From the NCBI GenBank assembly GCA_000004985.1, contig GG738845.1: DNA of 64,000 nucleotides, one strand, 5' to 3'. A model generated the notes under the pieces. The model was not told where the DNA came from. It was given only the letters and a program-made list of their open reading frames with translations, and made no database searches. A program made the translations under genes and the position numbers. The DNA is from Naegleria gruberi (Eukaryota). Shown here piece by piece: positions 14,592-60,546 of this stretch; the first letter of the stretch is position 1; every line of letters begins with the position of its first letter.

Positions 14592-17500
14592 ATGAATCCA
14601 AATGAATTGTTACAGCTTCGACAAGCCCGACTTGAAGCTTTACGAGAAAACAAGAAGTTTAAGGATGAATGGGCAGAGAACAATGAAAAAATACATAAAA
14701 GAAATATGGACATTAAGAAGGAACGAGAAGCTATTGATATAAAAATTAAAACATCAATGTCTTTGAAAAAAAAAAGACAAGAGGAGGTAAGATGTCTTTA
14801 GATCCGATTATTAATTAATGTAGTTGAGAAAAAAAGTTTCAAGATCCGAAGTGTTTTCAGGCATTGAGGAGTTTGAAAAAAAGTTGGAGCATACCGAAAC
14901 CAATAAAGAACCACAACTGGAAAAAGCATCTGTGCCAGTCAATGCTAATACATCAGTCACCTCAATAGAAAAACTAGAAAAGGAAAGTTCGAACACAAGA
15001 GATGCCAACTCTTATCTTAAAAAGATAAAAGCTAAAAGAAGTGAAGAGCATGCAAGTAGAAAGGAGAAGGAGCAAAGAAGAAGAAAAGTTCTAATGGAAC
15101 AACAACAGGTGTTTAAAGACTTAGAAGAATCCAGAAGAAGAGAGGTACTACTGGAAAAATTAATGAAAAAATCTATGGAGGAAAGACAGTTAGCCAAAGA
15201 GTTAAACGAAATTAAACAATTAAAACAGGTGATGAAGGAAAATAGAGAAATAAGAGAAAAACAATATGCTGAAAGAAGAAGAAAAGATTTTGAAGAGAAG
15301 CAAAGAAGAGAAACTGACCTTATGGAAAAGGAAAAGGAGGAAAGAAAAATCAAAAAGAGGGAGTTAATTGAAAAGCACAAACTATTGTTGGAAGAGAAGT
15401 CGAAACAAAAAAGAGAAAAACATTGGAATATTTGCTTTGAGATTTCTAATCAGATCATTGATTTATCATTTAAAGAAATTGAATATGCTGAAACAACAGA
15501 AGGAGAAAAGCCAACAACAGCAGAGATTCTTGAATGGAGAAAAATGTTCGTAAAGGGTGTCTATGATGATGAATCCACAAAGGAAGATGATGCTGAGCTC
15601 GAACAGTCTAGAGAAATGGAACAAAGTCTTCAAACACATGAAACTGTTGATTTAGATGTGATTGATATGGCAGAATTTAAGGATTATTTATCATGTAAGG
15701 GAGTTTGGAAAGAATCTTCTGATGAAACAGAAAAGGTATCCAACTTTATCAAAGATGTAGTCTCAAAACTTCACGATAAGATTCATCCTCTACCTTCACC
15801 AAAGACTGAACCTGTTCTCAAGAGCAAATATTCATATAATGTAATTTTGACAGGAAAACCAATGAGCGGGAAATCAACTGTTTGCAAAAAAATAGCATCT
15901 CAACTTTCTCTCTTTCACATCAATACAGAGGCTATTTTAAAATCACTCCTGGATGGGGAGAACAAGTCATCAGAGTATTCAGAAATTGCTAATAGAGCTA
16001 GAGCCTGTTTGTTGGATGGTAGGGAAATAGATGAAGAAATAATAGTTGACTTGATATTATTGGAGATAGAAAAAGTTGAAAAAATAGAAAATACAACATA
16101 CCAAGGGTGGTTGATAGAAGGTTATCCATTGACTCTGGAGGCAGCAAAAATTTTAGAGAGAAGAATATCAGGATACACACCATCTGTGGAGGAATTTGTT
16201 GGGACAGATTCTGAAGTCAAGCTGAACTCTGTTATTCTAAATCAAAATAGTTGCAAGAAGTCTGATGAAGAGCTTATGAAGCGTTTAGTACCATTCCAGG
16301 CATTCACATCTGTAATATTTATTGATGTTGAAGATGAATTAGTTTTCGAACGATTGGCAGACCAAAAAGTGGATCCTCTTACTGGAACTGTTTACCACAT
16401 GATTTACTCACCACCTGAGAGTGTGGACATTTCTACAAGACTTGTACCAATTGATGAACATGTAAGATTGGACAAGGCTCAAATTAATTCCCAACTGGTT
16501 TCGTTTGCTAAATCAAAGCGTGAACTAATGAATTGGTATAAGAAATTTGAAAATGTGTTTGAAGCAAAAGAAAACAGTATTGATGATTTGGTAAAAGAAT
16601 GTTCCAATATTATTACTAATCACAAGAGAGAACCATTCCAAAACCACATTCAAACGGAACCAGAAAATTCAGAAATAGAGCAAAGTGGTGGACCTGAAAA
16701 AAAAGAACTCGATGTTGAATTTTGCAAGTTATTCTTGAGTGAGTGGATGTCAATAGAACAAAATTATGTGGGCAGCTGCAAATTGGTGTTTAGGAATTTG
16801 AGAGATTTTAGAAAGTCATTCTTTAAGCAATTTTCAGATCTCAAAGAGCAATTCATGAACTTTTTACTTAGACCAGACGACAAACAAGTGTATATCACTC
16901 AATTCCAGAATGACTTCAACAGATTACCATTAGAACTTAGGAGTAATTCTCAAGTGAAAGATGAGCTTCATAGAAGGTCTGAAGATCTCAAGGAAACTCT
17001 TTGGACTCTATGTGACGAGAAAAAGTTAGAGGCAGAAAAGGAATTAGAAGAGCACCAGAAAGAATCATGGTTAAAAACACACAAAAAAGCTGTCACACGC
17101 CAATACATGCAACTCATTCAATTGGAGCTTAACAGATTTATAGAACAGAGCAAGTTTTTATTTGATTATTTTGTTGAACAATACTTTTCTAACGATTTAA
17201 GCATTGGTGCAACAATTGATCTAAAGAAAACTTTATCTGCCCCAATTCTTTCTGTAAATATTGAGGAGTTATTTGTTGATGTCATCTCAGGGGCTTCAAA
17301 CACCAAATCAACAAACAAAAAGCCAACAAAACCTTCCACGAATTCCAGCACCAGATCAAAGATTGATCAACAAGACCAAGACCTTAACATTGAAGATTGC
17401 TTTGAAAGAGCAAAAACTACATGTGATACTCTAGATCTTTTAATTACACTGCAAAATTACATTGATAAAAACGGGAAAAAGAAAAAGGAGAAAACAAAGG

Positions 17501-18684
17501 ATCCCTATGTTGATATTCCTTTGGAAGTGAGAGAGTGTATGGGGAAAGAGAAGGAGATATTTTTGAGAAGGATTACGCTCATTAAGGAAAGATGTCTAAA
17601 TTCCCTTAAAGACCAACTTGAATCAAAATCTAATCATATTTTCGGCACCATGAGAGATTGGATAGGACAACGTTACAGAACCGATATGGCAAATATTGGT
17701 CTCCTTTCCAGAACCATACAAGATTTTATTGAAAAGGAAACTCCTATAGTTAACGAGATGAGAATAGAAGGTAACAAGTGTATAATAGATGAGAGTGTAC
17801 AGATGACTAACCCGTTACCATTGCACTCTACAAGTAGATCTCAATTGACTACGCAAGAAGCTCCGGAGACAGTGGTTTCCTTCACTAAATCATTCACACC
17901 ACATCAAGTATTTTCATTATACGAAAGGCTACAAGCACCAAGTCCTAGCGGATTTGTTGAGCTAGAAGAGATTACTACTACACTTTTAATTCTTATCGAT
18001 TCAACATTCGGATCAATGGAACTGCCAAACCAATGGTTAGACTATGACAATGACAAGGTTAGAGAAATTACAAAAAGGTTTGATCCATTCAAGAAGGGAT
18101 ATATTAATTGGAGAACATTTTTATTATCTGCTTTATTTACATTTTTCCATCGTCTTCCAACCATTGAGGATATTAGAAAACTCCTTTTAATAGTTCATCC
18201 GCTTGTGTCATCTGGAGAAACCAACTTAAAGCAAGAACAATTTACGGATCTTTTAATCAGATGGATTGGCGAAACAGGTATTTCAAGTAATGAGGAAGAG
18301 GTATCAAAAGTGTTGTTCAACCTTTTCAAACCATTTATTAATGCAACAGTCTCCAACACTGTAAATATTAGAAGCGTTCTCCTTTACCTTTGTTTAGATA
18401 ATCAATCAATTATTGGAACTCTCACAAAGGGATTTGAAGTATTGTCCTATCTGAATGGAACAGAAGGTTTGGATGATAGTGGTGTCTTTGAAATCATGAA
18501 TTTTAATATTGATGTTGAAGAGGACGTAGAAGATTCATTTTCACTTTCTCAAATAAGAGCAGTTTTTGCAGAACTGAAAAAGTCAAAGTCTAGTGTGTCC
18601 CTTGAAGAATTTTCATGTGCCTCCATTGGCAAGACAATGCTAAAAAAAAGTGTACATTTGAAATTGGGTTCTGTATTCTATTAG
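14592..18684 (+). CDS. Coiled-coil protein of about 1351 aa with a central, probably inactive, adenylate kinase domain and a C-terminal EF-hand-like region; SPEF2/CPC1-like flagellar central-pair candidate. Join(14592..14786,14824..18684).
   Basis: Intron gtaaga...aatgtag 14787-14823 joins ORF 14592-14801 to ORF 14824-18684 in phase 0. The AK fold is recognisable: P-loop LTGKPMSGKSTVCKKIA; GWLIEGYPLTLEAA aligns with the AK GFLIDGFPRT motif; LID-like RLADQKVDPLTGTVYHMIYSPPE aligns with [22 protein letters not shown]. The catalytic arginines of the GFPR and LID motifs are replaced (L, Q/K, T). The N-terminus is an E/R/K-rich coiled coil, and DPFKKGYINWRTF is EF-hand-loop-like. Confidence 0.55.
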
Positions 18685-18697
18685 AGAAATAAAACAT

Positions 18698-21421: not shown

Positions 21422-21573
21422 TTTTTTCCTTCAAACATCTTAAGTCGTCTGTATTTAGTTTGTCTAAAGTCTTCCAACATTCAACAATAACCTTGAAACT
21501 TTTGTTTTAAATTGAAGGTGATAAAGGATTGATTTTGATTGCATAAAACGAATATAATTATTCATTAAAAAAA

Positions 21574-23094
21574 ATGCTCAAGTCTAGTGGATTCATATTC
21601 AACCCTCGAGTCATTGCCAATAATGTCATCGGAATCACAAGGAAGAGTAACAATTCACCATTCATGAATTGTTATAATGCTCCATCAAGAGTGATTAGTG
21701 CCTTGTATCATTTTAACATTATTGCGAACAAGAAGTTTTCCTCTTTTACCAGTGGAGGAGGAGCCGATAGAACTCAACTAACTATTTATGAACAATTGAG
21801 ATCAAGAACATCATCTCATAGAGAAGATAATGAAGATAATGAAGAAAGAGTAAAAGAAAAACCAAGAGTTGTCAATAAGAATCAGAGGTATTTGGACCGA
21901 AATGAAAAGAGACATTCCAGACAAGCTCACGATGATGGAAGCAGAAGAAGAGAAGGAAGGGATAGAGACTACCATAGTAGAGACAGAAGAAGGAAACAAA
22001 ACCATTTCGAAGAAGATGATCCTTGGGCTGAAAAGCCAAAAGTAAAGAAATATTTACCGCCTCCTGAGCTCACTAGAAACAAATACATCACAGATGACTT
22101 GGAGCATCATTTTTCGAATAGCAAACCTAAGACTAAGGTTCCAGCCTTCTTTGCAAATATTTCTAACTCTGCACAAGATGTACAAAAGATGAAATCTAAT
22201 GTAATCAACCATATTGCAGATCATAAAATGAAAAGGGGACACATTCAGAACATCTCACACAAGAACTCAACAACGAAAATTGAAACCCCAATTGTAGATA
22301 AGATTGATTCTGAGCTAAGTGAATTATTAGGAGGTGAAGATATTGAACTTTCACAAAATTCTAAAAGATTTGAAATTATTGATAGTATCGCCAATCTTGA
22401 AGATAATGCTCTCTTTGATGAAATTGAAAATGAAGAAATAGATCTCTCTCAAATCAACCTATCTCCTGAAGAAAATCGTTCAAGACTTCAAACTTTTTAC
22501 TTTTCAACTCTTCCTGAATACATAGAAGAATGTTTATTGAACATTTTGAAAAATCAAGACTCAATGACAGACAGTGAATATTACAAATATCTCAATATGG
22601 AAAGGTTGTACATTACCAGTGCAAAACTTTCTGAAGATTATAGAACAATAACGTTAAACTATAGATTGTTGGTAAGAGAAGGTATTGATGAAATGGGAGA
22701 GGAAGCTAACCAAAGAGATGCTCAAATTATTGATAAATTATTTGCCACCCAATTTGTCAAACCAACACTAGAAACCTTTGAGAATATGCATGGTAGAGTG
22801 ATGTTGCGTGATTTTGAAAAGCCAAAGACTATCAAACTCAATTTTAAGGGAATCAAATTGCATGAACCAAGTATTTTTGACGAGCCATTACCAAATGTTA
22901 AACCTGGTGAGAGAAGACCACACATTAACCCATTTGCAGAACTGCCATATTTTACAGGAAAACCAATGAGTGGTGAAAGAGCAATTAACATTCTCAATAA
23001 CTTGGGTATTAGCATCCCAGACGATTCAGAAGCAGCAGAAAAAAAGAACTCAGATAAACCAACCACAACGAGAAAACAAAGAGAAACAAAATAA
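21574..23094 (+). CDS. Hypothetical protein, 506 aa, with a presequence-like N-terminus, an R/D/E-rich low-complexity segment and a conserved-looking C-terminal domain; possibly mitochondrial.
   Basis: Continuous ORF. The N-terminus MLKSSGFIFNPRVIANNVIGITRKSN is basic/hydroxylated and lacks acidic residues, like a mitochondrial targeting peptide. No family recognised. It lies convergent with bL17m, whose last exon starts about 40 bp away. Confidence 0.45.
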   Translation: MLKSSGFIFNPRVIANNVIGITRKSNNSPFMNCYNAPSRVISALYHFNIIANKKFSSFTSGGGADRTQLTIYEQLRSRTSSHREDNEDNEERVKEKPRVVNKNQRYLDRNEKRHSRQAHDDGSRRREGRDRDYHSRDRRRKQNHFEEDDPWAEKPKVKKYLPPPELTRNKYITDDLEHHFSNSKPKTKVPAFFANISNSAQDVQKMKSNVINHIADHKMKRGHIQNISHKNSTTKIETPIVDKIDSELSELLGGEDIELSQNSKRFEIIDSIANLEDNALFDEIENEEIDLSQINLSPEENRSRLQTFYFSTLPEYIEECLLNILKNQDSMTDSEYYKYLNMERLYITSAKLSEDYRTITLNYRLLVREGIDEMGEEANQRDAQIIDKLFATQFVKPTLETFENMHGRVMLRDFEKPKTIKLNFKGIKLHEPSIFDEPLPNVKPGERRPHINPFAELPYFTGKPMSGERAINILNNLGISIPDDSEAAEKKNSDKPTTTRKQRETK

Positions 23095-23134
23095 ACATGC
23101 TGGATAATATCCGTATTATTGGTTGTTTTTGGAT

Positions 23135-23696: not shown

Positions 23697-23875
23697 TTTT
23701 TGTATTTTTATTTATTCAATTTTTTCATATCAATTTGAAATTTATTATTAATAAACCTTCAAAGAGAGTGACCTGATTAACTACAGCTTATTATTGCAAT
23801 GATTGTTACTTAAAATTTAACGTTGCCTCCAAAATAACTCTGTAGTTTTCTTTGTAGTTGCAAACCGCTAAAAAA

Positions 23876-26800
23876 ATGATCAACCGACATCATTATGCTT
23901 TCATAGGTGATTCCAGAAAGAATGGAAGTGAGTACAATCCAATACAAATGTTATTTTAATATAGATCTTTAGAACCTTATGAGCCAAAGAAAGGATCAGA
24001 CATAAACTTACCACCATTAGGGGTTAGAAAAGAGAAGGAAAGTGCAATTCTTGAAGCAGATGAATCTTCTCGGAATGATGTTTTTAAATTCAATAGAGAT
24101 GATGTATTTAATTTTGATATTAAGGATATGAGAATATCAAGCACCAGGGAGGTACGTCAAAACCCAAATCTGCTCCAGGCCAATGCTCCCCCACCAAAGA
24201 GAACTAAAGTCACGTTCAAAGGTATGTGAGGAATTGATACTTTAGTACTTAAATACAACCAGATGCGGACGAATCAATGCAAGAGAGTGCTATTGCTGAA
24301 GGAATTTCTGTTGAGGATTGGATGAAGGAAAATGAAAATATTTATGATGTTAAATTTAGGAAGGATGAAAAAACAAAACAACAGGGAAGAAGGTCTCTCA
24401 CCAGACCAGAGTCACAATCATCGTTGGATTCTAGTACATTAAAGGAAGGAAACACTAAACTACCTTATTTGAAGGATGTATTCATGAAGGAACGGGCTCC
24501 ATCAAAGCAATTAGTTCATTATTTGGATATTATTGGAGGAGAAAAACAAGTGAATACAAAAAAAATACTTAAAGTGGCTCCAGATGACGAGGAAGAAATA
24601 GCAAAGTTAAAAACTGGTGATGATGCTGTTGCCTTTTTCTCGAAAGCAGGAAAAAGTAGTAGGTATTATTTAAACTATTTGGATAACTTTGATTTTTTAA
24701 AGCTGCTGTCAAGTTTGTATATTTAAATAGAGCAGATTCAAATGGAGTTGATTACCGACCATATGATCTAGTTGTAGTTTCTAAAAGTGACACTAACCCA
24801 GAATATTTTACCATGTCTTCGACAGGTGTTGTACATATTTGCCCAGGTCAACCTACTGAGTACATGTCCCTCTCTGAATGGATGAAAGAATCAACAATGT
24901 TTAACGTTCTAAGAAGAATTAGATTTTTCAAGTACTATCTTGTTCATAAGTGCTTTAGACTCTGGTATCAAAGTAAGTTGACAACCTTAGTCATTCAATT
25001 ATCTAACGTATTTATCCAGATGCAAGATATCTTAAATATAGTAAGAAGAGAATGGATTTGGCAAGAAATTTCTTCCTTGCCAAGAAAACTTTCTCTTCTT
25101 CTGTCATGAAGATTCACAAACTTTCACACGACTTGCAATATACTCCAATTATGGACTTGAGAGATAAAGAAAATTCAAATGAGCCATCAGTAACTATTGA
25201 ACAGTTCCATGAGGCTCAAAAAGAATTGAGATCAAAATCATCTAAAACCTTTGACGAAATTATTGAGAAAATGGAGGAAATTTTGGTACAACTTTGTGAG
25301 GATGTTACTTCTAGGTCAAGAGTTCCAGATATGAATGCTTCTGAAAATATTGAAGCCTATCTCAGTGGTAAAATACCTACTCTTGAAGCTGAGGATGATT
25401 TCACAGCTAAAAAATCCAAATCTATGGTTGAGGCCCAAGAGGAAGAAGAAAAGAGACAGAGAGCCCTTAAAAAAGCAAGAGAAGAGGCGGATATGCTTGG
25501 TAATTTCATTAGAGTTTCCGACTATATGGCTGTAGAATCTTTGGTAACTTTATCAAAGAAGATTCTCGACAAATTCAAGGTTACTCTCCAAGAAACCAAG
25601 TCAATACTTTTCCTTGTAAACTTACTTTTCAAATCCGATGGTTCTGACATTGTTTTTGAACCATCTGAGGGTGCAATAATGCATGTTCTTCAATCCAACT
25701 CTGATGAAATTGTAACAACTGTCAGTCAAGTTCCAAGACTTTTATACATGCGTAAATTCAAAGTTTATTTTGATAATCTGGATAAATTCAAGATGGAAGA
25801 ACATTTAAGACAACTTCATGTTGGAAAAGTATTGCAGAGAGATGAGGTATTTAACTCAATCAAGTCTCAAATAGAAATGATGTTACACAATGATTTCTTG
25901 AAGGCGTTAGAATATGGAAAGGATTTCGAAGGATTGAAACATTGGTTCAAGTTTGGAAAAGAATGGGATGATAAGTATGCAGAAAAGAGACACACTGTCC
26001 AAGAATTTACTGAAAAAATTAAGCATGTCAATGATGCTCTCCTTGAGTTGAAGAGAATGAACTTTGTGCAAGAAAAAGGAATTCTTTTTATTGACAGCAA
26101 ACAGTTAAGAAATACTTTGCAACCAATTATGGAGAGTATTTACGAGCAAATTAAACTTTCTATAAGTGTTACATCCCGAGAAATGTGTCTAGAACTTAAT
26201 AAGAAGTTCATTGAGAGAGTAAGAATCATGAAGGAAGAGCCAACCAAGCTGAAGGACTTTGCCAAGTTCATAGATAACCACAATAAGATCAGAAAGGAAA
26301 CTCGTCAACTCATGATAGCGGCTGATGAAGTTGAAAAGATGAATGAACTTGCTGCAAAGAACAAGGTTGAAATGGACAGAGCAGACCAAGTTGCTTTGGA
26401 ATCATTGAAAGAAATTAAGGATGAGTTTTTGCAAGTATTCAAAAAGGCAGAACTCTACAAGGAGAATAATATGGCTTCAAAGAAAAGCGAGTTGGAAGAA
26501 AATGTTCAAAAGGTTAGTGATGACCTTTTGGACATGATGACAGTGCTCAGAAATCCTCCATTCATTACAGCTGATGCTGACCCAGTTGATGTTTTGGAAA
26601 GACTTTCTAGACTTGGTGAGGAGATTGCCCAATTTAAAGAAAAAACAGAAATCTACAAAGAGTACCAAATTCTACTTGAGGCACCAGTTAAGGAATGGAC
26701 CAATTTAACAGGCGCTGAAACTCAATTCAATGTTAGAAGTCAAATTTGGAAGGCTATAGATGAATTTTCAAAGAAGTCTGACCTTTGGGATACCACTGAC

Positions 26801-27712
26801 ATCCAAAAACAAGATATTAGTGACATTGAGCAAGAGGTTGAAAAATATTATCAACTTGGAATTGAAATGGCCAAATTTGGAGAGGATGATGTTGTAAAGT
26901 TGTTGAAGAAAACTGTGCAGGTTTGGAAAGATAATTTACCAATAATTTTAATGATTGGTAATAAGGACTTGAAGCCTCATCACTGGGAACAAATATTCAA
27001 AGGTATGAATAAGGAATCTGCCAAAGGAGCTTCCTATACACTTAGACAATTGGGTACTCTTGGTATTTTTATGTACAAAGATTTGATAACAGACGTTTCA
27101 AAAGCAGCAACAGGAGAAGCTCAATTATTTAAAAGCTTGGAAGTTATCGCTCAAACCTGGAGAGAAACTGATTTTGATTTCAAAGCTCTTCCACATAGAA
27201 AAGATTTTTACATATTGAATCAAACTGATAATATTCAAATGCTCTTGGATACTCATAAGAGAACCCTCAGAGAAATGTTGGATTCAAAATATGTTTCTGT
27301 AATTAGAACTAGAGTTGAGGATTGGATAAAAAAGTTGGAAAATGTAACTGTAATATTCCAAGAGTGGCTTTCTTGCCAGAGAAGACTTTTATCTTTGGAA
27401 TACATTCTCACATCTGATCTCATCAAGAAAGAGAATCCAGAAGATGTTGCCAAATACATTTCTGTCAGTTCAGAATTCAAAGATTTAATAAGCAAAACAA
27501 GTCTTAATAGAAATGTGCTGGTAGCTACTCATGAGGAAGGAATTTTAGAAACATTTGGTCGTTGGAATATGGCTTTTGATGAAATTGAGAGGAACGTAAA
27601 AACCTCAGAGGAGGGAGCTGCTGCTCTTGCTGAAGAAAGCGAGGACGACCAAGATGTTTCCTCTGAATCTGATTTGGATGAGCATGCCTACGATGAAGAG
27701 GATGAGTATTAA
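23876..27712 (+). CDS. Protein of about 1214 aa resembling the N-terminal tail region (DHC_N1) of dynein heavy chains, with no AAA+ motor and an acidic C-terminus; 5 exons: join(23876..23928,23965..24221,24263..24662,24731..24972,25020..27712).
   Basis: Introns start gtgagt, gtatgt, gtatta, gtaagt. Every phase checks out and the total of 3645 nt is divisible by 3. Exons 4-5 encode EYFTMSSTGVVHICPGQPTEYMSLSEWMKESTMFNVLRRIRFFKYYLVHKCFRLWYQ, which has the pattern seen at the start of dynein heavy-chain tail domains (P..EY..L.EW..E...F..L..I.FF..Y...K.F..W). The downstream 880 aa are coiled-coil-rich and end in AEESEDDQDVSSESDLDEHAYDEEDEY. The stop at 27710-27712 abuts the Hsp110 3' end, so no motor exons can follow. 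Confidence 0.5.
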
Positions 27713-27732
27713 AAAATTCAAACAAAAACTAT

Positions 27733-30147: not shown

Positions 30148-30284
30148 ATTTATAATCTAGATTATTTAACAAGTAAAATTCTTGTTGTATTTGTTGTGGC
30201 CACGTGGTGGAGTCTTTTTTTTAAAAGTTATTTTCTATGGGCTGCTTTCAAGTTTTATTGTGATGGAAGTAAATTTAGCACACA

Positions 30285-33168: not shown

Positions 33169-36100
33169 TTATTGCTGGTTGTTAGGAATTACTGAGCCAA
33201 TATCGTCATCATCATTGAATTCATCATCTTCTTCCATAGTCTTTCTTCTACAAACCATACCTTCCTCACTTTGCTTGAAGCCTTTTTTGTATTCCTTTAA
33301 AGTTTCAGACACTGGTTTGGAGCTCTTAAACTTCTTGTGACCATCAACATTAATATCTTTAGACATGAGTGGTTTCATTGCTGTTTGAAGACTGTTAAAT
33401 AATTGAGGATAAATTAATTCTTGATTAGCTAAGAGTGTCTTGACACGAGCTCTTTCTTTTGGTATTTCAAAACAGGCTGGGCAATTTTCATTAATGACAG
33501 GCAAACCACTTTCCCATGCGAACTTTTTGGTTTCTGTCTCTCTCACATAGATAAGTGGACGAATAACACGTAAATCTCCAACATCAATAGTATAGTGAGC
33601 CTTCATAGTTCTCATAAATCCGTTGTGGAAAATAGACATGATAAAACTTTCAGCTAAATCATCAAGATGTTGACCAAGTACAAGTACATTATAACCTTCT
33701 CTTCTGGCAGTATTGTACAAAATACCTCTTTTCATTCTGGCGCACCAAGCACAAATTGAAGAAGCATCACATTCTTTTGCGCCTTCAATAACAGATTGGG
33801 ATTCATAGAAATATGGAACTCCTAATTGTTTACAATAGTTAATTAATGGGGAAGGGTCATAGCTTGCAGTTTGAGGATCAACTGTACAAGCACCAAATTC
33901 AAAATTGATACCCAAGTTGCTATATTGCAATGCATGTAAAACATGGAGTAATGTTAGAGAATCTTTACCACCAGACAAACCAAGTAATAATCTATCACCT
34001 TCTTTAATCATATCAAACTCACGAATGGCTTTCTTGACAGGTGCCATAATTGACTTGGCATCAACTCTTGGCCACATCTTGTAGTGATTTTTCAAAATTT
34101 CTCTTCGTTTCTTTTCATCATCAACATCTCCCGTAATCTTATCGAAAACCTTTCCATCCAATTTTGGTCTCTTTGGAATATATTTCTTGGAAGCCTCTTG
34201 TTGTTTCCAGTCACCTTCAATTAAATCCTCTTCAATGCATGGCATGTCTAGGATAGAAGATTCAACCAAAGGAGTTACAGAAATAGGTTCAACAATAGGT
34301 GGTTGTGAATCATTTTCAACATTTTCAACAGGTATGATTTCAGAATTAAGTGTTGATTGTATCAAAGAGCTTGTCAATTTGGTATTATTACTTTCATTTG
34401 AGACAAGATTAGAAACATTAAAACCAGTCCATGGATTAAGAATTGATTGTTTGTAAATTTTTGTAATATCACCACCTTGTAATTCTTCAACAATTTGCTT
34501 TGGAAAAACAAACCATCTCCATTTTTCAGCATGATCAATTTGTTCATCCTTTGTTGGGAGATTTTCCTTATTAATAATACTATTTTCTTTCAGCAGGTTT
34601 GTGTTTGGTTTGTTGAGAAGAAGTAAATCTTGATCTACAATTCTATACTTTGGATTTGAGAATTCCTTTACAGCTTGTTCAGCAGACTCTTCAGCTTGTT
34701 TCAGATATGTATCATATTCTTTCTTTGGTGAACTAATCTTATATCCAATTTCTTGTCTATATTCAAGTTTACCATTTTTGTAAGAAATATTTTGTAACCA
34801 TCTTCTTGTTGGAAATTTTCTGTTATTATTATGAATCCATTCGCCTGATTCTGGATAAAAGTAATAATATGGCAAAAACTTGTAGCCATTTTCAGCAACA
34901 AATTTTACGGATTTAACAATATATTGGAATGTATCTTCATCCATAAAATAATTAAAGTTCAAACGAACAAAACCAGGTCTCAAAAACTCATAATCATCAT
35001 CTGATAAAAGTACATTTTCCAAACTCTTAGCATCGTTATATTTGAGACCAAAGAGGAAATGAGAAAATGGACCAGCACATGCACAACCAGATCTAGTTTG
35101 GATGCCAAACAAATCATTCAATAAAATTGAAACAAATGTAGATGGAAGGAAGGAGTTATGGTGTCTTACTAGGAAGCTGAATATTGGTAAACGAGGAGTG
35201 TTCTCATTGTGGCCAAGAATTACCAAATTTCTTGTTGACTTGAAGGATTCAAAAGCACGTTCAGTGAAATTAGTCTCAATTTGTGAAATCAATTGAGTGC
35301 CAACAGCCTGACGAAGTTGGAAAATAAGACCACATCTGACTGATCCTAAAATTTCAGGAGTACCACCTTCTTCTCTTTCATAAGACTTTTTAACATAATG
35401 ATGGTCTCTGTCAGTAACAAAGAATACAGTTCCACCGCCTGGGTTTTCAGGAATCTTATTTTTAAAGAGATGTTTTTTAGCAACAAGTACTCCTGGTGTA
35501 CCTGGACCTCCAATGAATTTGTGAGGACTAAACACAAGAGCATCCTTATAACAGAGAGCTCTTTCCTCGAGAGGAATCTCCTCTGCAACCTTACCAAAAG
35601 TGTGATCTAAATTCTCTGTAGAAACACCTCTTGGATTCATATCTATTTTAACATAAGGAGCTGCACAAGCATAATCCCAAACTACATATCCACCATATTT
35701 GTGAATTAAAATTGAGATCTTGTTAACATTTGGTTCAAGAACACCAGTCACATTTGATGCTGCAGAGAAAACACCAATAAGCATTCTCTTTCCGTTATTA
35801 TAATATTTTAACTTGTTTTCCAAATCCTCAAGATCAGCAACTTCATTTCTAGTTGGGCTAGAATCATTTGATGGTAAATAGAGTTTGATTGGAACAATGT
35901 GACAGCAGGATTCTCTCCAAGGAAGAATATTTGAATGGTGTTCAGCTGGACCAACAAAAACTACAGGTTGTACCTCATCAATTTCTTCACTTGATTCAAT
36001 ACTATAATAATTGTCATAAAATCCATTATTTGATTGCAAATTTTGTAAATTAGATGATAATTTCTTTTTGCTTTGTTGTTGAGAAGAAATGGTAAATTCT

Positions 36101-39873: not shown

Positions 39874-39943
39874 GCTCAAAAATGTAATCTAAAATTGTTT
39901 GGTGTATACCAATAAGTCAATAAATTCAATAATTGAAAATAAT

Positions 39944-50282: not shown

Positions 50283-50318
50283 TTAAAGGATCATTTAAAT
50301 TCATCGATTGATGTTTAT

Positions 50319-53300
50319 TTACATGTCGGGCGATTGTGCTGTTGAGGAAGAAGGTGACGAGGCTTGTTTGGAGATTGTAGTGGCAGTATTGTCGATTTGT
50401 TGGAGAGAAGTAAACTGGGAGTTTAAACTGGAACTTTGATGAAGATAAGGCATTGGAGGAGAATTAGAAGTAATATAAGTAGGATTAAGGTCAGCAGTGT
50501 TTTCATGGTTATCCATTCTTGTACTTTGCTCACCAGAAAACACTCGTTTTTGGAGAGTTATATGATCAAGAAACTTTTGCTGCTCTTTTAGTTTCCAATC
50601 AGACCTGAGAGAGTCAGTTGGATCCCACAATGAGGACACCCAACCTACTGAATATGGATTTGTAGTTGAAGGTCTATTTTCTTCTTCTCTTGTTTTTTCT
50701 GCCTTTGGCGTGTAGAACCTTTGTTCTGTGGTTGAGCTAGGAACGCTCTTCGTGTCTATGTCATCATAGATTGAGAAATCTTCTTGCATTTCAATATTCT
50801 CTTTTCTCAGGTTTGTTCTTGAGGTTGACCTTCTTGGGGGTGTTATTTGATCAACATCTTGCTCTTTCTCTCCGACTGAGGTCAAATCCATAAACTTTAA
50901 TTGTTCATTAAGAGTCATCTCTGCTTTTCTTATTCGTTCTGAAATAGCAGATATCTCTGCCTTCTCTGATCCTATTTGTTTTCTTGATTTTGTTATTTCT
51001 AATCGTTCCAATTCTAACATCTTCCTTTGATCTTGAAGTTGTTTTTCAAGAGATTTAAGATTCTTTTTTTCTGCAAGATAATTTCTATTGAGGGCTTCTG
51101 CTTCATCTCTCATTTTCTCTGTTTCTGCTTTTTCTTTCATCACTTCTTGGTACTTGAGAGTGACTTGCTCACTATCGGATTGTACTTGGATCAACCTTTG
51201 GGCTAAATGTTCATGCTGTTGATAGAAGGTTTCTTTTTCCTTAATAAGCACAGATTTCAATTCTTCAACATCTCTCCTTTCTCTATCAATGAGATCTCTC
51301 ATTTCTTTAATAAGTCTTCTTTCTTCCTCCAAGCTCTTCTTTTCAGAATTCACTTGGGATTCTCTTTCGAATAGTTCTTTCATTCTTGATGTGTGTTCAA
51401 TTCTGGCAGATTCACGTTCGGCTAATGCTTCTTTTTGTAGTCTTGACAACTTTGAACGTTCTTCTTGAGTATCCACAATAAACTGTTGCCTCTCTACAAT
51501 GAATCTAGCTTTATCTTCATCTAGTCTTTCTCTCATTTCATAAATTTCTCGCATCTTGGTTTCAAATTCTTTTTCATAGTTTTTCTTTTTTTCTTCTAAC
51601 TCTCGTTCCTTCTTTAGGGTTTGTAGTCTTTCATCTTCATAGTTCTTTTGAATCGATTTCATATTCGTTTCCATCTCTACGTATAGAACTTGAATTCTAG
51701 ATCTCTCGGTGGCCAATTCTTCCTTTTGTTTTTGATGGGATTTTTCAGTCTCGGAAATAAGTCTCTCTCTAACTACAAGGTGATCTTCTTTTTGTTTGAA
51801 GACTTTCATTTGATCCTCGTAGAGTCTATGGTGAAGAGTTTCTACTGAGTGAGCATTCACTTCTATTTTCTTAATGAGATCATTTAAAGATGATTCTACT
51901 TGAATGTTTTTCATCTTTTTATCGTATTCCTCCTTCAATATTCTTTTATGCTCCTCAACTTCCTCTTTTTGTCTTTGCTGGATGGCCATCTTTTCCATTT
52001 CATGAAGTTTATGAATCTGATCAATTTCCATTTGATTTCTTCTTTTCAAGTTTTCCATCTCGGTGGATATTGTTAAATCAGCTCTCTCTTTTTCTCTGAG
52101 TAATCTGGATGTAAATCCCTCTGAATCCTCTTGGATTTTCAGTTCTTTTTGTCTTACTTCTTCTTTTAACTGTTCAATTTTGAGATGAGATTTCTGAATT
52201 GTTGTTTCAAACTCTATTCTAACATTATTAACTGTTGCCTGTTTCTCTTGCTCGAAATTTAACTTCATCCTATGTATCATTTCTTCATGCTCTTGTTTTA
52301 ATTCATTGACAATATTTTTTTCTTTCAACTCGTATTCAAGTTGTTTTTTTGCATGTTCTTTGAGTTGAATTTCTTGTTGTTGGATGGTTTTTTGAAGGTC
52401 ATCTATTTGGGAAATCAACTTTGACCGTTCTTCTAGGAACTCTTGTTTTAATTCCATTTTTAGTAATCCAGAAATGTTTTCCAAATCTTCTTTTACCAAG
52501 CTCCGTTGTACAACATGTGGTGGATTGTCTATCCTTTTTGGAGAAGGAATTGGAAGTGATTTTTGGCGTGGAGAGGATGAAAGATCAGATAGTTTGATTG
52601 GTGATGAAGTCTTGTTGGAGGATGTATTTGAAGGTTGTTGTTGAATCTTGGTACTTTGTCTACTTTTAGGCACTTCCTCAGGATCAAGATAACTCAGCGA
52701 TTTTCTCCCATGTTCCTCCATTGGATCTGCAAAGTCAAAATCATCATCAAAAACTTCTTCCTCCTCAACAGTTTCTTCCATATGACCATCCTCAAAGTCA
52801 GTAAAGTTCTCTAGGTCTGTATCTTCAGCCCTAGGTTGCTCAATAGATCCTCTAAACGAATCATCAAAATCACTTTCAATAAAGTCCTCATCTTCTATTA
52901 TTTCCTCTTCAAAATCATTATTTTGTTTCTTTTGTCTGTTGTCACGTTCTCTTTTTTCTTTTTCTTCTCTTTCTCTCCTTTCCCTTATTTCTCTTTCTTT
53001 TCTCTCTTTTTCTTCACGTTCTCGTCTCTCTTTTTCGAGTCTTTCCTTTTCTTCTCGTTGCTTTTTTTCTTTAACTTCATTTTCTTCTCGTTGCTTTCTC
53101 TCCCTCTCTTCCCTTTCAATTTTTTCTTTTCTATCTCTTTCAATTTTTTCTTTTTCCTTCCTCTCTCTTTCCTTTTGCTCAAATTCTTCCCTTTCTCGTC
53201 TCTCCTGTTCCCTTTGTTTCCTTTCTCTTTCTTCTCTTTCCATTTTTTCTTTTCTATCTTGTTCTAATCTTTCTCTTTCTTGACGTTCCCTATCTTCTCT

Positions 53301-54197
53301 ATCTCTCCTCTCCTGATCTTCCCTCTGTTTTCTCTCTCTTTCTTCTCTTTCAATCTTTTCTTGCTCCCTTTCTTTTCTTTCCTTTTCCTCTTTTTCTTTG
53401 ATTTTCAAAATCTCTTTTTCTTGTTCTTCCATTAACTGATCATCATCAAAGTCGAAATCGTCCTCAATAGAAGATGGAGATTTTGATTTCTTTTTAGTTT
53501 TTTTCTCATTCTTAAAATCAGGAACAGTAAATCCAGAGGGCCTTTTGCTTGAGTTGGGTCGTTTTGATCTTGCAAAATCAAATGAGTAAGCATCTTGTTT
53601 ATCATTTTTTGGTGAAGGGGCTTTCTTCTTGTCCTTCTTTTTTGTTTCTTTTTTGGTTACCGGGTTGAAATCATCCAGGCCAAGCATTTCTCCAACTTCG
53701 TCATCATCAATATCTGAAAACTATCAAAATTATGATTAATACTCTTACAACAAAAAATAACATACACCAGATGTAGAAACATTCTCATCAGTATTTTCTG
53801 TATTGGTATTGGAATTTTTCTTTCCAAATAGATCCACATTAATCTTTGTTAATGATCCAGATGAGCTGGATGATGCATTACTTTTGGAAGATTTGTTTGA
53901 ATTTTTCCTAGAAACTTGATCTGAACTATTTTTCTTTCCTAATAAACCTCCAACAGATGTTAGATCATTTGTACTTTCCGATTCATCTTCACTGGCTGAG
54001 TCCCTTGTTGCTGAAAAGACTTCTCCAAAATCATTACTTCCAAGTATCATGTTAGATTTTCTTGTGTTGGTTGTATTTTTCTTGAATTTTGATCCAAGAT
54101 TAAAACCAAAATTAAAGTCATTGCTATCGTTAGACCCAGAGGAACTAATGGATGAACGTGATGATTTTCCTCTTGGCAGAGATGTCAATCCACTCAT
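50319..54197 (-). CDS. Long coiled-coil protein of about 1274 aa with an ER/K-repeat single-alpha-helix-like segment, S-rich termini and a myosin-tail-like heptad region. Join(53768..54197,50319..53713) on the minus strand.
   Basis: Exon 1 is ORF 53745-54230 from MSGLTSLPRGKSS (ATG at 54197). A 54-nt intron (gtgtatgt...ttttcag, plus 53714-53767) joins in phase 1 to DIDDDEVGEMLGLDDFNPV. This is followed by about 200 aa of near-pure E/R/K repeats (EREERERKQREDQERRDRE...), then about 600 aa of heptad coiled coil. Confidence 0.6.
52920..53420. repeat. Low-complexity CT-rich (coding-strand GA-rich) codon repeat tract encoding the ER/K segment.
   Basis: The plus strand is an almost pure ctcttt/cttttc/ctctc reiteration. 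Every reading frame of both strands is open here, which generates the spurious ORFs 52836-53267, 52939-53283 and 52985-53182. Confidence 0.7.
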
Positions 54198-54414
54198 TTT
54201 TTTATTGTTTTGGCGGGAAAAGTTGTACAAAATTTGGCGCTAAACCAATATTGTTAATCATGTTAATGATTGATTTGTTCTGATCTGAATTATTGACAGA
54301 AATAAGGGCCATAATTAATAACATATTCAAACTTAATTAAGGGTGACAATTCCAATTCATTTAGACTCCTTTTCCAACGGCCTTATTCTTACAACCTCAC
54401 TACCGCCAAAAAAA

Positions 54415-55470: not shown

Positions 55471-55749
55471 AACTTTTACTTGTAAATAAATGTAAAGAAT
55501 AAATTCATTCATTTCAAATTTTTTATGACAATCAGTATGATTGTTACTGGAAATTATCTGATTTACTGCACAAATTGAGATAGAAATATGGAGCAAATGC
55601 CAACCATGCTCGGGGATAAAGATTTAGATGACCTTGATGTACACAGTTTTATCATATCGCCACTTCTGGTTCGCATTCTTCTTCAATCACTTTCGCTACC
55701 CAACAACAAAATTGATTGAACAAATCTGTTGTGTTTTATTGAAGAAAAA

Positions 55750-57561
55750 ATGCGTAGATACATCACCAGTAATACCACACAAGTATTTACCAACTCTCTC
55801 CTCTCAAAAACGTGCGCTCAAAGACACTATTCCCAATCATCGAATTCGGAGAAGGCACCACTACCACCTAATTTTGAGTCAGCAATCATTAATGACAATA
55901 CTAAAGTCAATATTGAATCTCAGATAAATTCCGAAATATTAACTGAGAGGAAGTATCATGTTATTCCATCCATCTTTGAACAATATGGAACACCTCGTCC
56001 TCCAACTTTTTCACTCATTCATCAATATAACTCGGATTCTAAACATTTGGACTTTTCTACAACATCAGAAGTAACAGCAAGTTTGCCAAACATTGAAAAA
56101 ACCTACCCGGATTCTCATCTCATAGAATATTACTCGAAACATAATGCACAACTGAAATCTGTTCAATTGAAAGATAATGTTGTTGACAGTCAACCATATT
56201 ACAGATTATCTGCATTTAATTATGGATCTGTAAGATACAGTTTATTAAGATCAGGATTTAAACGTGTTGGAAAGGATGTTCCAGTTGTTGAAAGAGGATA
56301 TTTAAAACTTTCAGAACAAGATCAAGAAAAGAGATTTGAAAGTTTTGTTAACGAACCATTTTCAATTTACTGGGGTAGACACTTACCAGCTCATTTCTAT
56401 CAGCATTTAAATCATTTCCAAAGAGTGAACCACTTTCCTGGATCAACTAATTTGGGTAGAAAGGATCTATTGTTTATCAATTTATTCAGACAAAAACAAT
56501 TGTCAGGTGATTCAGAATATGGTTTCTTTCCTGACAGCTTTTTACTTCCTTATGATTATAAGGTTTTTCAACAAAGATGTAAAGAGCAGGATTTATTTAT
56601 CCTTAAACCTTTTGCAAGCAGTTGTGGTCGTGGTATAAGTGTGTATAATACCAAGAAACATGCACCACTCCCAGAAGATAAACGTATACTCGTACAGGAA
56701 TACATCGCTAACCCTCTACTGATAGCAGGAAAGAAATTTGATATGAGATTATATGTTTTAGTTTCATCATATGATCCGCTTCGTGTATATCTTCATTGTG
56801 ATGGTTTGGCACGTTTTGCCACTGAGGAATATGACATGTCAAGACTAGATTCTGTTTTTTCCCATCTCACTAACTATTCCATCAATAAGAAATCAGATAA
56901 TTTCGTAAGAAATGATGAAGAATGTGAGGATGAGGAAGATGGTTGGAATGAACATGCTCACAAGTGGAGTATTCCATCTTTAAAAACCTATTTGGCTCGT
57001 AATGGATATCCAGTTGATAAAATTTGGGGTGATATTGAAGGTCTCATTGTAAAGACATTAATTTCTGTTGAGAATAGAATTCGTGGCACATGTGAAAAGG
57101 TTCAAATGCCATCAAAGAACAATTGTTTCGAGATTTATGGATTTGATGTTATGTTAGATGGAGATCTTAAACCATGGCTTATTGAAGTTAACATTATGCC
57201 ATCACTTGCTGTTTCTTCAGTATTGGATAAGAGAGTCAAAGTAGATGTTTTAAGCGAGTCGTTCCATATTTTAGGAATGATTCCTCATTCTCGAGCCAAT
57301 TATGAGCAAGAAAAGAAGACTAAACTGAACTATTACGGAGAGTCTGTAAGTGCCAAAGAAAAGTACATTCTTCATGATAGCGAAGATGAACTGTCCAGAT
57401 TGCACAACTTTAAGAGAATCTATCCGCCTGTTGATGGTAACCCAGCCAGATATGAACATTTATTCCAAGAACATGTCGAATCTAACAAGGTACTCATAGA
57501 TTTTGAAAAGGAAAAAAGAACAACAACAAATATTGAATCCCTTCACAAACTGATTGCATAA
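55750..57561 (+). CDS. TTLL: Tubulin-tyrosine-ligase-like (TTLL) polyglutamylase-type enzyme, about 603 aa.
   Basis: TTL-domain motifs are present: QRVNHFPGSTNLGRKDLL; FILKPFASSCGRGISVY; ILVQEYIANPLLIAGKKFDMRLYVLVSSYDPLRVYLHCDGLARFATEEY; HLTNYSINKKSDNF; and CFEIYGFDVMLDGDLKPWLIEVNIMPSL. ORF 55729-57561 is taken from the first ATG, MRRYITS. Confidence 0.8.
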   Translation: MRRYITSNTTQVFTNSLLSKTCAQRHYSQSSNSEKAPLPPNFESAIINDNTKVNIESQINSEILTERKYHVIPSIFEQYGTPRPPTFSLIHQYNSDSKHLDFSTTSEVTASLPNIEKTYPDSHLIEYYSKHNAQLKSVQLKDNVVDSQPYYRLSAFNYGSVRYSLLRSGFKRVGKDVPVVERGYLKLSEQDQEKRFESFVNEPFSIYWGRHLPAHFYQHLNHFQRVNHFPGSTNLGRKDLLFINLFRQKQLSGDSEYGFFPDSFLLPYDYKVFQQRCKEQDLFILKPFASSCGRGISVYNTKKHAPLPEDKRILVQEYIANPLLIAGKKFDMRLYVLVSSYDPLRVYLHCDGLARFATEEYDMSRLDSVFSHLTNYSINKKSDNFVRNDEECEDEEDGWNEHAHKWSIPSLKTYLARNGYPVDKIWGDIEGLIVKTLISVENRIRGTCEKVQMPSKNNCFEIYGFDVMLDGDLKPWLIEVNIMPSLAVSSVLDKRVKVDVLSESFHILGMIPHSRANYEQEKKTKLNYYGESVSAKEKYILHDSEDELSRLHNFKRIYPPVDGNPARYEHLFQEHVESNKVLIDFEKEKRTTTNIESLHKLIA

Positions 57562-57668
57562 ATGAATTTTTATTTGTTTAATTATTCTTCTTGTATTTTG
57601 GCGCCAAAACTTGTACAATTTATTTAGCCTTCTTCCGCCAATTTTTGCAACAACAGAAAAAAAACATC

Positions 57669-60546
57669 ATGATCTCTAATGAGGACACCATTCCCAAAAC
57701 ACCCACCTCGTCTTCGGAGGACACACCAAGGAAAGAGGTTAAAGAAGCAAATAGTTTAATAGATCCTTCATCACAAAAAAAGGAAGAAGAGGAATATACT
57801 GTAGAGGACGATAATTTTGAAGGAAGTAGATTAAAATTTTAGTAAGTTTTAGTTAAATTGATAAAGATAACAACAATACTAGTCACACACTAGGTTTAAG
57901 GAGCATACCACAACCTATTCAACATTTGGAAAATGAGGAAGAAATGGTTTACCTAGTTGGAAAACATGTTTCCATCTATAATTACGAAAAAAGAACTCAT
58001 TCTTTCATTTTAAAAAGTAACAACATTCTGGAAATACATTGCTTTGCTATTTCCCCAAATAGAGCTCTTATAGCATTGAGTGAATCATTTATCGATCAGA
58101 AAAAGAAACTTAGCAACACCCCAAACACAAAAGACGCAGTAGAACATCAAATTTCTGTTTATAATTTCAAGAATGCAAAAAGAGCAAGAGTACTTAGTGT
58201 TGTAGGACCATCTGGTAAATCGACTCCAGTTATTTCAATGGCTTTTTCAGGAGATGCTCAGTATTTGGCAGCAGTAACAGATGAACCTGAACAAGCAATT
58301 TATTTATGGCATCTAGCAAAAGCAAATGTAAGTCTAAATTGAATGATTGTGACAATGAACTTGAATTCAGAGAATATCATGTAAAAAAATACCATTCAAA
58401 GTAACTCAAATCTCTATTAATCCTTATTCCCCTTGGCAACTTGCTACTTCTGGGCCAGATGATATGAAAATTTGGAGATACACAGAAGGAGAGTTGAAAC
58501 ATATTGACCCAATAGGGAGTGACAAGTATACTTACAAATGTCATTCTTGGTATGATGACGAAAAGTTGCTTGTAGGAACTGAGGAAGGTCAGGTACTTGT
58601 TATCGAAGGGAAAAATGTCGTAAAAGTGATTTCCAATGTTCACCCTAATGCATCAGGTATCCTTTGTATTGAGGCAATAGATAGAGGTTTTGTTTGTGCT
58701 GGTGAAAATGGTTATTTCTCTGTTTTTGAAAGGACGTACGATTCAGAACATTTTAATCATTACAAAAAATTTAGAACTATTGAAAAAAGGAAAATTGTTG
58801 CATTGTGTGTTTCCAGAAAGGAGAATAATGTAATTTGTAGTTATGATGACAACAAACTTGCCTTCTTTTCTTTAGCGAATGTAGATATTCTCAAAGAAAA
58901 TGATAACAACTTTACACTCCTGCCTGTGGGATTCCATGGCCAACTAGTTCTAGGAATGTCAAATTGTATTCAAAAACCGTTACTTGTTACTTGTGGATCT
59001 GATAGGACATTACGGTTATGGAATTATGTAAAAAGACAAATCGAGCTGGAAAAAACATTTGATGAGGATGTTTATTGTGTAACTTTGGATCCAACTGGAA
59101 CAAGAATATTACTAGGATTTAGGTACAAGTTGAGTTGTTATGCAATATTATCAAATGATTTATATTTATTACATGATTGGCATATTAAGGGATGTAAGCT
59201 AGCCAACTATTCGAATGGAGGACATTATTTTGCATGTGTATCGGCAACATCAATATTGGTTATATCCTCTCTAACATTTCAAGTTGTAAATACATTGAGA
59301 GGGCATAGTGGAATCATTAAATCAGTGGTTTGGGGTAAAAATGATACTCAACTTGCATCAGCAAGTTTTGATGGAACTATCTGTGAGTGGGATATTGTAT
59401 CTGACAAACTAAGAATACATGAAAATGTTGTTAAAACTTGTGCATTCAGATGCGTTGCCTATGATCACAAAAATCACATGTGCTCTGGAGTTGGAAGTGA
59501 TGGTAATTTGTGGACGTTTGGAGGTGGAACACTATTCAGTCAAATTCCAACAAAGGAAGATCTAACCTGCCTTGTTTATTGTTCCCAGGCTGAACTAGGG
59601 ATTGTTGGTACAGCAAGTGGAAAACTTCTCTTGTATGCTTGGCCTCCAGATGACCATGCGTTTGTAGAGTATGAGGTTCACAATGGTGCAATTTCATCTA
59701 TAATATTAAGTCAGGATGAAAAGTTTCTGTTCACTTTAGGAGCAGATGACACTCTTTTCATGCTAGAAATTGAGACAAGAAAAGAAGGAAAAACTCTTCA
59801 ATTGAAATCTGTAGATTTTGATAAGTTTTATGATCTCTATTACACACTGAGAGGAATAGAAGAAGAAACAGAACAGCAAATAATGGAACTTTCAGATAAA
59901 GCAAAACTAGCAAGTGATGAAAATGAACGAAAATACCAACACATTGTGGATAGATATGACCAAGAACTTGAGTCTCAAAAAATGAAATTTACAAACGATA
60001 TTAAGGAATTAAAACGAAGGAATGAACTACTAAAATCTCAGTTAACAGATCAAGAAGCTAATTCCAAAGAAAACGTTAACAGAATTGAGTATTCACATCA
60101 GGAAGAAATAGACCATGAGCGAACCATCTCTGAAAACCTCTTGAAAGAAACAAAAGAAAAATATGATAGGGAAATAGAAAGTTTGAAGGAGAAACTAGCA
60201 TACTTTGTTGATTTGGTGAAGGTTATGACCGAGAAACACGAAGAAGAAATTGAGAAATTGAAGCAAGAGTATGAGGAAGAAAAACTTCAGCTGGTTGAAA
60301 CCTATGATAACCTTAGCCAAGACTTTAAACAATTATCAAGTGTTTATCAGGCGACAGTACAACAATCAGAGGAAGATTTTGACACTCAACTTAAAAGAGT
60401 TAAGACATCCTTGATTCATACAATCGAAAAACACAAACAATCCGTTATTGAAGCCAAAGGAGAGGCTGTTAAAAAAGGAACCAAAGTTGAAGAGCTGAAG
60501 AAGGAAATAACCTTGCTCAAGTCAAAAGTTTCAAAGCAAGAAGAAA
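57669..60546 (+). CDS. CFAP57: CFAP57/WDR65 orthologue (axonemal WD40-repeat plus coiled-coil protein), 3'-truncated by an assembly gap. Join(57669..57841,57883..58327,58371..>60546).
   Basis: Introns are gtaagt...tactag (57842-57882) and gtaagt...attcag (58328-58370). Several blocks align to human CFAP57. HTLGLRS...MVYLVGKHVSIYNYEK matches HVFGLRS...IIFPSGNHCVKYNIDQK. FAISPNRALIALSE matches LSISPNRRYLAISE. VISMAFSGDAQYLAAVTDEPEQAIYLWHLAK matches [80 protein letters not shown] matches [49 protein letters not shown]. The C-terminal coiled coil runs into the N-gap at 60547. Confidence 0.8.

Follow-up and report, generated by a model that had tools for sequence, protein, structure and literature searches.

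Does the presence of four flagellar genes in one short region of a genome reflect a co-regulated cluster, or is it a chance sample of a gene set that is dispersed over the chromosomes? The question is raised by a stretch of 64,000 nucleotides of Naegleria gruberi NEG-M, referred to here as the window, which corresponds to scaffold_1:544001-608000. Naegleria is the textbook organism for the change from amoeba to flagellate. The window contains four genes of cilium or flagellum families, all on the + strand, which encode a CPC1/SPEF2 protein, a dynein tail, a tubulin tyrosine ligase-like enzyme (TTLL), and CFAP57. It is highly probable that these genes are a chance sample of a dispersed flagellar regulon, in which all four members had already been annotated and the dynein gene, which encodes a headless heavy chain, is the sole non-standard element.

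The dynein gene (23876-27712, + strand) encodes a heavy chain of 1219 aa that consists of a tail and an N-terminal linker of the IAD-5/DNAH6/dynein g type. Its exons (23876-23927, 23973-24221, 24263-24658, 24703-24972, and 25020-27712) are separated by four GT..AG introns of 41-47 nt, and the stop codon is followed after 20 bp by an HSP110 gene in the opposite orientation. The gene is AKG0011 ("dynein", scaffold_1:567876-571712), a model corrected by RNA sequencing (RNA-seq). It was formerly known as NAEGRDRAFT_61303, which represents only the 5' part, and the original JGI model of 583 aa was wrong. Gene models were compared with the annotation file (GFF) accompanying bioRxiv 10.1101/2024.01.08.573270, and the addition of 544000 to the window coordinates reproduced the JGI and AKG models exactly (for example, the TTLL gene at 599750-601561, in addition to AKG0011).

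The product matches the Pfam family DHC_N2 (PF08393) with an E-value of 3.1e-57 over profile positions 4-301 of 403, and it extends through the tail and into the linker for ~300 positions. Its end corresponds to DNAH6 residue ~1180 of 4158, directly before the conserved KRxxFPRFYFLSNDELLEIL motif and ~270 residues short of the AAA1 P-loop. This distance was taken from an alignment with the sequence P0008, in which the end falls at residue 1148 and the P-loop at 1418. No AAA1-6 modules, stalk, microtubule-binding domain (MTBD), or C-terminal domain were found in the gene, whose open reading frame (ORF) ends at 27712. In view of the missing AAA ring, the product cannot hydrolyse ATP or step and is not a motor. 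The original prediction of a dynein-tail-like gene was correct, and the tail is of the DNAH6 type.

The best solved chains are single-headed inner-arm heavy chains, which are matched only over residues ~280-1130, and among mammalian chains DNAH6 is the best. Chlamydomonas DHC7 (dynein g) and DHC3, human DNAH6, and the IAD-5 class of Wickstead and Gull are homologous to the Naegleria protein in the tail and N-terminal linker, in both sequence and fold. The corresponding scores are 1.5e-79 for the Chlamydomonas chain 8glv_Mm, which is probably DHC7 judging from the chain order, 1e-39 to 1e-47 for DNAH6, and 2.8e-30 in Foldseek. The difference from these proteins is that the Naegleria protein has no AAA1-6, no stalk/MTBD, and no C-terminal domain. 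An AlphaFold model built with 21 sequences has a mean predicted local distance difference test score (pLDDT) of 84.5, and disorder is confined to an internal loop and to the last 33 residues, which are acidic. In Foldseek, the top matches of this model include Chlamydomonas 8glv_Mm, T. brucei 9e5c_6c, and human DNAH6. These sequence and fold comparisons assign the gene to IAD-5/DNAH6/dynein g, and not to IAD-3, IAD-4, I1, or the outer arm. As a separate observation, PDB 9y6s chain 9a, a chain of 1431 residues in the Leishmania 96-nm repeat, aligns with the tail/linker model with a target TM-score of 0.23 over 719 columns.

A headless heavy chain could in principle result from an error of assembly or of gene modelling, or be a pseudogene. 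The wrong JGI model and the gaps in the scaffold are in keeping with such an origin. The alignment position of the truncation, however, is shared by N. fowleri (1185 aa), a third Naegleria, Acrasis kona (1248 aa), and two Logan contigs, and the stop recurs in independent assemblies of four other taxa. Pharyngomonas kirbyi has a tail-only dynein of 998 aa, which is a complete ORF in a transcript and has the same end position, and the truncation point is common to five heterolobosean lineages. The genes located 3' of the tail-only dynein are unrelated in Acrasis and Naegleria sp., which makes three genomes counting N. gruberi, and synteny around the dynein gene is lost in Acrasis. Comparison of the tail gene between N. 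gruberi and Naegleria sp. gave a pN of 0.10 and a saturated pS of 0.80, which indicates strong purifying selection. The RNA-seq-corrected model, the intact frame, the confident structural model, the conserved stop, and the ratio of pN to saturated pS essentially refute an artefact, which is hardly credible. The dynein tail is an intact, conserved, and expressed stand-alone gene that encodes a tail and a partial linker and no motor.

Another explanation is that dynein g is split, so that the present gene would be the N-terminal half and a separate gene would encode the motor, which would begin at the FPRFYFLS motif, run to the C-terminus, and assemble with the tail non-covalently. Giardia and Ustilago provide known cases of split heavy chains. 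The outer arm of Giardia and Dyn1/Dyn2 of Ustilago resemble the Naegleria case in that the heavy chain resides in a gene of less than full length. The difference is that both halves are known in Giardia and Ustilago, whereas no motor half has been found in Naegleria, where the break falls within the linker and not within the ring. The identical linker position of the break in all five lineages would suit a split, and so would the uninterrupted form that is retained by a related flagellate. An exhaustive profile search of 1.84 billion representatives retrieved a full-length relative of 4123 aa with 766 bits, compared with 440 bits for the next full-length chain. This relative is 76% identical to one of the two full-length IAD-5-type chains of the heterolobosean flagellate Percolomonas, whose tail is the closest full-length relative of the Naegleria gene. 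The disordered acidic C-terminal tail, which is present in Naegleria and Acrasis, could act as an interaction handle, but it is absent in Pharyngomonas and in one Logan orthologue. A break within the linker would also part the lever from the ring, and no motor-only gene was seen, in searches that were unable to show one. The timing and strength of induction described below also separate the tail gene from every full-length heavy-chain gene that was checked. On balance, a split heavy chain appears unlikely.

Expression was taken from Data S2 of bioRxiv 10.1101/2024.01.08.573270. AKG0011 showed log2 fold changes of 5.38, 7.76, 7.86, and 6.90 at 20, 40, 60, and 80 min of differentiation, which corresponds to a peak induction of ~230-fold. 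It belongs to differentiation cluster 1 and carries the flag "up in differentiation". In the mitosis series it rose by up to +2.8. For comparison, five full-length heavy-chain genes were read, namely the four axonemal genes I1-alpha, jgi_36107, outer-arm beta, and AKG0042, and the intraflagellar transport (IFT) dynein DHC1b. Their log2 fold changes were 0.2-1.5 at 20 min, with peaks of 3.9-5.2. The tail-only gene is induced earlier than these five and ~6-15 times more strongly.

Such an early response raises the possibility that the protein acts outside the axoneme, at the basal body or in the cytoplasm. It might, for example, be a chaperone, sequester inner-arm light chains as a decoy, or be an adaptor in pre-assembly or transport. 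The membership in differentiation cluster 1, a log2 fold change of 5.4 at 20 min ahead of these five full-length heavy-chain genes, and the modest rise in mitosis are consistent with this role. A contig of a related Naegleria (L002) points in the same direction, where the sole match to an E2F-like pattern in 6.9 kb (1472-1479) is located 42 bp upstream of the tail-only dynein gene. However, the entire docking tail is conserved and is predicted to fold like the tail of an axonemal inner arm, and the gene occurs in lineages with flagellar gene sets, including Acrasis. A role outside the axoneme is therefore considered doubtful.

In single-headed inner-arm dyneins, the tail is the part that docks the arm, and it binds actin together with centrin or light chains of the p28 type (bioRxiv 10.1101/2025.11.06.687033). 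FAP57/CFAP57 targets dyneins g, DHC3, and d to their sites and keeps them stable there (PMC6761771). Together with these data, it can be tentatively proposed that the gene encodes an ancient, selected, and very strongly differentiation-induced headless arm of heterolobosean flagellates and amoeboflagellates. This dynein g-type chain, reduced to the docking tail and half a linker, might occupy a CFAP57-dependent site in the 96-nm repeat, compete for such sites, or titrate inner-arm light chains, without a motor. The tail would keep its usual partners, which are actin and centrin or p28-type light chains. The headless arm would dock at the g-type inner-arm site with the aid of CFAP57, where it would have a structural or regulatory role. 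A pairing of the tail with a separately encoded motor is less likely, as is a cytoplasmic or basal-body function. A search of the accessible literature for dyneins described as headless, motorless, or tail-only returned nothing relevant, and the 2024 preprint counts AKG0011 among six inner-arm heavy chains without comment (bioRxiv 10.1101/2024.01.08.573270). The nearest comparison is DNAHX/DNHD1 (bioRxiv 10.1101/2025.01.18.633724), which are also heavy-chain relatives without motility and for which structural or transport roles have been proposed. DNAHX differs in that it has a full-size motor locked by insertions, is derived from outer-arm alpha, and is found in animals, whereas the motor is absent from the Naegleria protein, which is of the inner-arm g type and occurs in Heterolobosea.

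The remaining three genes are ordinary members of their families. The first is the orthologue of CPC1/SPEF2, a C1b protein of the central apparatus (14592-18684, + strand; exons 14592-14786 and 14824-18684; 1351 aa). It was manually curated by JGI as jgi_45058, "cpc1/kpl2 homologue". The original prediction of a SPEF2/CPC1-like architecture with an adenylate-kinase domain agrees with the Pfam matches of the product (SPEF2_D5 8.6e-35, ADK 5.4e-15, and SPEF2_C 5e-13) and with the best solved chains (Chlamydomonas CPC1 1.2e-75 and mouse SPEF2 2e-68). CPC1/SPEF2 (KPL2) has the same succession of SPEF2_D5, adenylate-kinase, and SPEF2_C domains. The difference is that the Naegleria gene has no N-terminal calponin-homology (CH) domain, and the first residues aligned in the PDB comparison are 269 of CPC1 and 192 of SPEF2. 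A missed CH-domain exon was looked for on the 5' side, and no + strand ORF of at least 60 aa was found between the end of the upstream gene at 14055 and the ATG at 14592. These two genes are separated by only ~540 bp, which leaves no room for more 5' exons. Further upstream, the neighbouring gene includes the + strand ORFs 12825-13244 and 13598-14014, neither of which has a Pfam match.

Two further observations concern the 5' side of this gene. The JGI model has a 27-bp first exon at 14217-14243, unlike the ATG at 14592 used here. In addition, a 166-aa ORF (14059-14559, - strand) is divergent from SPEF2, lacks a JGI annotation, and has no family match. If real, it would share with SPEF2 a spacer of ~70 bp that contains an E2F-like site.

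The TTLL gene (55750-57561, + strand) is a single exon that encodes 603 aa. The product is an exact match to XP_002683134.1 and was manually curated by JGI as jgi_61312, "tubulin tyrosine ligase homolog". Including this one, N. gruberi has six TTL genes. Pfam TTL (PF03133) is matched at 2.1e-76, with 257 bits against a cut-off of 20. Among PDB chains, the glutamylases TTLL6 (3.3e-62), TTLL7 (4.7e-59), and TTLL11 (1.7e-41) score far better than the TTLL3 glycylase (5e-20) and TTL (~1e-15). The enzyme thus belongs to the autonomous polyglutamylase group and is closest to TTLL6/TTLL7. It is of the predicted polyglutamylase type, closer to the glutamylases than to glycylases, TTL, or TTLL12. It shares with the TTLL6/TTLL7 polyglutamylases the TTL ATP-grasp core, which aligns over ~320 residues (1e-59 to 1e-62). 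The difference is that the Naegleria gene can be placed only within TTLL4/5/6/7, and its UniRef name is TTLL5.

The CFAP57/WDR65/FAP57 orthologue (57669-60546, + strand; exons 57669-57841, 57883-58327, and 58371-60546) encodes at least 931 aa and was manually curated by JGI as jgi_61313, "FM40". The predicted orthology is upheld by the CFAP57-labelled chains of human and mouse axoneme structures (8e-77 to 1e-76) and by the Chlamydomonas chain 8glv_Cp (9.5e-74), whereas the best generic WD40 protein reaches only 4e-15, that is, ~1e-77 against ~1e-15. The product has Pfam matches to WD40 beta-propellers followed by a long coiled coil, as in CFAP57/WDR65/FAP57 (BOP2/IDA8). There are two differences. 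The ~300 C-terminal residues of the Naegleria protein are missing because the frame enters an assembly gap, a run of 50 N at 60547-60596. Full-length CFAP57 proteins have ~1200-1300 aa, and their docking role is known only from Chlamydomonas and human. The JGI model starts at 57944 and lacks the 5' exon 57669-57841, which joins in frame through a 41-nt intron and regains the conserved N-terminal motif HTLGLRS.... In PDB 9fqr the names of several chains do not fit the sequences; for example, a dynein chain of 4730 aa is called CFAP57 and a CFAP57-like chain of 1266 aa is called DNAI3. The molecule names of this entry look scrambled, and they are therefore unfit for orthology calls, including the top match from bovine sperm.

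These Pfam and solved-chain matches confirm that all four genes belong to cilium or flagellum families and are not generic paralogues. A search for more such genes among three ORFs of uncertain function, 3167-5788 (- strand), 21574-23094 (+ strand), and 50319-53687 (- strand), gave no match to solved axoneme chains, so no additional ciliary genes are recognised in the window. All four genes had been annotated by hand earlier, either in the genome project or in the 2024 re-annotation. Finding the genes is as such known and ordinary, and the original prediction adds nothing new in this respect.

The original prediction further held that the ciliary genes are located side by side in a tight cluster and may be co-regulated. 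Only the TTLL and CFAP57 genes are adjacent; they form a tandem on the same strand with a 107-bp spacer, as predicted. The SPEF2 and dynein genes are separated by three genes, and the two pairs are 28 kb apart with ~10 housekeeping genes between them. A binomial estimate was made in which 2-4% of ~15,700 genes are ciliary and the window has 24 genes. The probability of at least four ciliary genes was 0.001-0.014, and ~1-9 non-overlapping windows of this kind and ~6-25 adjacent ciliary pairs are expected by chance in the whole genome. The window does not contain more same-function neighbours than chance would provide. Since it was noticed after the fact and the count is within the chance expectation, the four genes are no evidence of clustering.

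Co-expression in the flagellate stage, which had been proposed as a test, is documented for the dynein-tail gene and stated for CPC1/SPEF2, which is reported to be induced both in differentiation and in mitosis. The co-induction is part of a genome-wide differentiation programme and not a local cluster effect. The four genes would belong to a large gene set that is switched on at the change from amoeba to flagellate. In this set, CPC1/SPEF2 would serve the central pair, TTLL would modify tubulin, CFAP57 would be a docking factor for the inner-arm dyneins g and d, and the fourth member would be the tail protein.

In a functional ciliary cluster, the members would be co-regulated because of their proximity, by promoters that are shared or adjacent or by a ciliary motif that they have in common, such as an X-box. 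No exact X-box was found in the window, and none was found in the four promoters even with one mismatch. With one mismatch allowed, the window has 15 matches, compared with 9.3 expected. RFX, FOXJ1, and XAP5 are reported to be absent from Naegleria (PMC12183034), with which the absence of the X-box agrees. No k-mer of at least 9 nt containing G or C was common to at least three of the four promoters, which share only A/T-rich or purine runs. A 12-mer, ATGATTGTTACT, is located 77 bp upstream of the dynein-tail ATG (23799-23810, + strand), and its only other exact copy in the window is located 213 bp upstream of the TTLL ATG (55537-55548). As a shared regulatory element, this pair is at about chance level for six promoter pairs; it was kept as a lead only and was not counted as evidence.

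The E2F-like pattern TTTSSCGC gave a different result. It occurs six times in the window, compared with 0.86 expected, and no shuffle reached six. One site, TTTGGCGC, is located 32 bp upstream of the SPEF2 ATG (14553-14560, - strand). Another, TTTGGCGCCAAA, is a perfect palindrome located 61 bp upstream of the CFAP57 ATG within the 107-bp spacer between TTLL and CFAP57 (57597-57608). These are the only two of the four flagellar promoters with such a site, and the dynein-tail promoter of N. gruberi has none, although the tail gene of the related Naegleria has. Two more sites, TTTCCCGC and TTTGGCGC, are located at 54213-54240, at the 5' end of a non-ciliary gene (50319-54230, - strand). The reported rise of CPC1/SPEF2 in both mitosis and differentiation would suit an E2F-type input. 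E2F-type control of flagellar genes can be regarded as a lead suggested by these sites.

The tandem of TTLL and CFAP57, the strong induction of the dynein-tail gene together with the reported induction of CPC1/SPEF2, the E2F-like sites upstream of SPEF2 and CFAP57, and the 12-mer are what a co-regulated cluster would draw upon. Against this stand the intervening genes, the count within genome-wide chance, the absence of an X-box, of RFX, and of any motif in all four promoters, the E2F-like sites at a non-ciliary gene, and the loss of synteny in Acrasis. Regulation through neighbourhood or in an operon-like unit is accordingly very improbable, and the original suggestion of co-regulation was not supported.

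Several points nevertheless count against the reading of the window as a chance sample with one ancient headless dynein. The ciliary fraction of 2-4% is an approximation made for this analysis and not a measured list. The over-represented E2F-like site occurs in two of the four promoters, so that some shared control may exist. The single origin of all tail-only genes is not settled by a neighbour-joining tree (866 columns, 200 bootstraps, IAD-3 sequences as outgroup). In this tree, the heterolobosean sequences, including the dynein-tail gene, form one clade with 100% support. The sister of this clade is a T. vivax chain (88%), and DNAH6 belongs to the wider group. Within the heterolobosean clade, support is 69% for the Naegleria/Acrasis tail-only genes, 85% for the full-length Percolomonas chains, and 46% for the placement of Pharyngomonas. 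With these values, one ancient truncation and several parallel truncations are both possible. Finally, word-indexed searches with the Percolomonas-like chain, either whole or as the segment following the truncation point, returned no Naegleria dynein, and the best fragments were uninformative. Since ~10 Naegleria dyneins exist and none was returned, the silence of these searches on a motor-only partner carries no weight. The chance sample of a dispersed regulon remains the reading adopted here.

The surroundings of the four genes are those of a compact genome. The window is AT-rich, with a G+C content of ~0.33, and its long ORFs are split by GT..AG introns of 37-47 nt. It has ~22-24 genes, or ~1 per 2.7 kb. 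The predicted housekeeping setting was confirmed by family matches and JGI annotation. The neighbours are dynamin, Rpp40, LeuRS, a DEAD helicase, mitochondrial L17, HSP110, an HMG-box protein, TAF4, C-4 sterol methyl oxidase, exportin, BRR2, and syntaxin. The original prediction that the source builds axonemes is borne out, as N. gruberi forms flagella. The fungal or amoebozoan look ascribed to the source was mistaken, as the host is a heterolobosean amoeboflagellate (Heterolobosea, Discoba).

Some features of the window lie apart from the flagellar genes. The gene at 50319-54230 (- strand) consists of a 1122-aa ORF and a 161-aa upstream exon, and its N-terminus is serine-rich. It has no Pfam or PDB match, is not ciliary, and is only partly modelled by JGI (jgi_61310). 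A single 1059-aa ORF at 33169-36348 (- strand) combines class-V aminotransferase (cysteine-desulfurase-like) and PP-loop ATPase domains, and the JGI model jgi_34667 divides it by three introns. In addition to the gap that cuts CFAP57, a second run of N extends from 61883 to the end of the window. With this run begins a gap in the scaffold that exceeds 60 kb, and the next JGI gene is at scaffold_1:668219.

Two results alone are worth following up, namely the dynein heavy chain without a motor and the E2F-like sites in the promoters. The E2F-like sites offer a cheap hypothesis for the control of cilia genes in organisms without RFX, FOXJ1, or XAP5. The conserved truncation across Heterolobosea is a natural experiment on what a lone dynein tail can do in docking, light-chain binding, and regulation. 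If the headless arm is real, Naegleria would have five, and not six, motor-bearing inner-arm heavy chains, and the tail protein would be a natural motor-less arm that tunes the flagellar beat.

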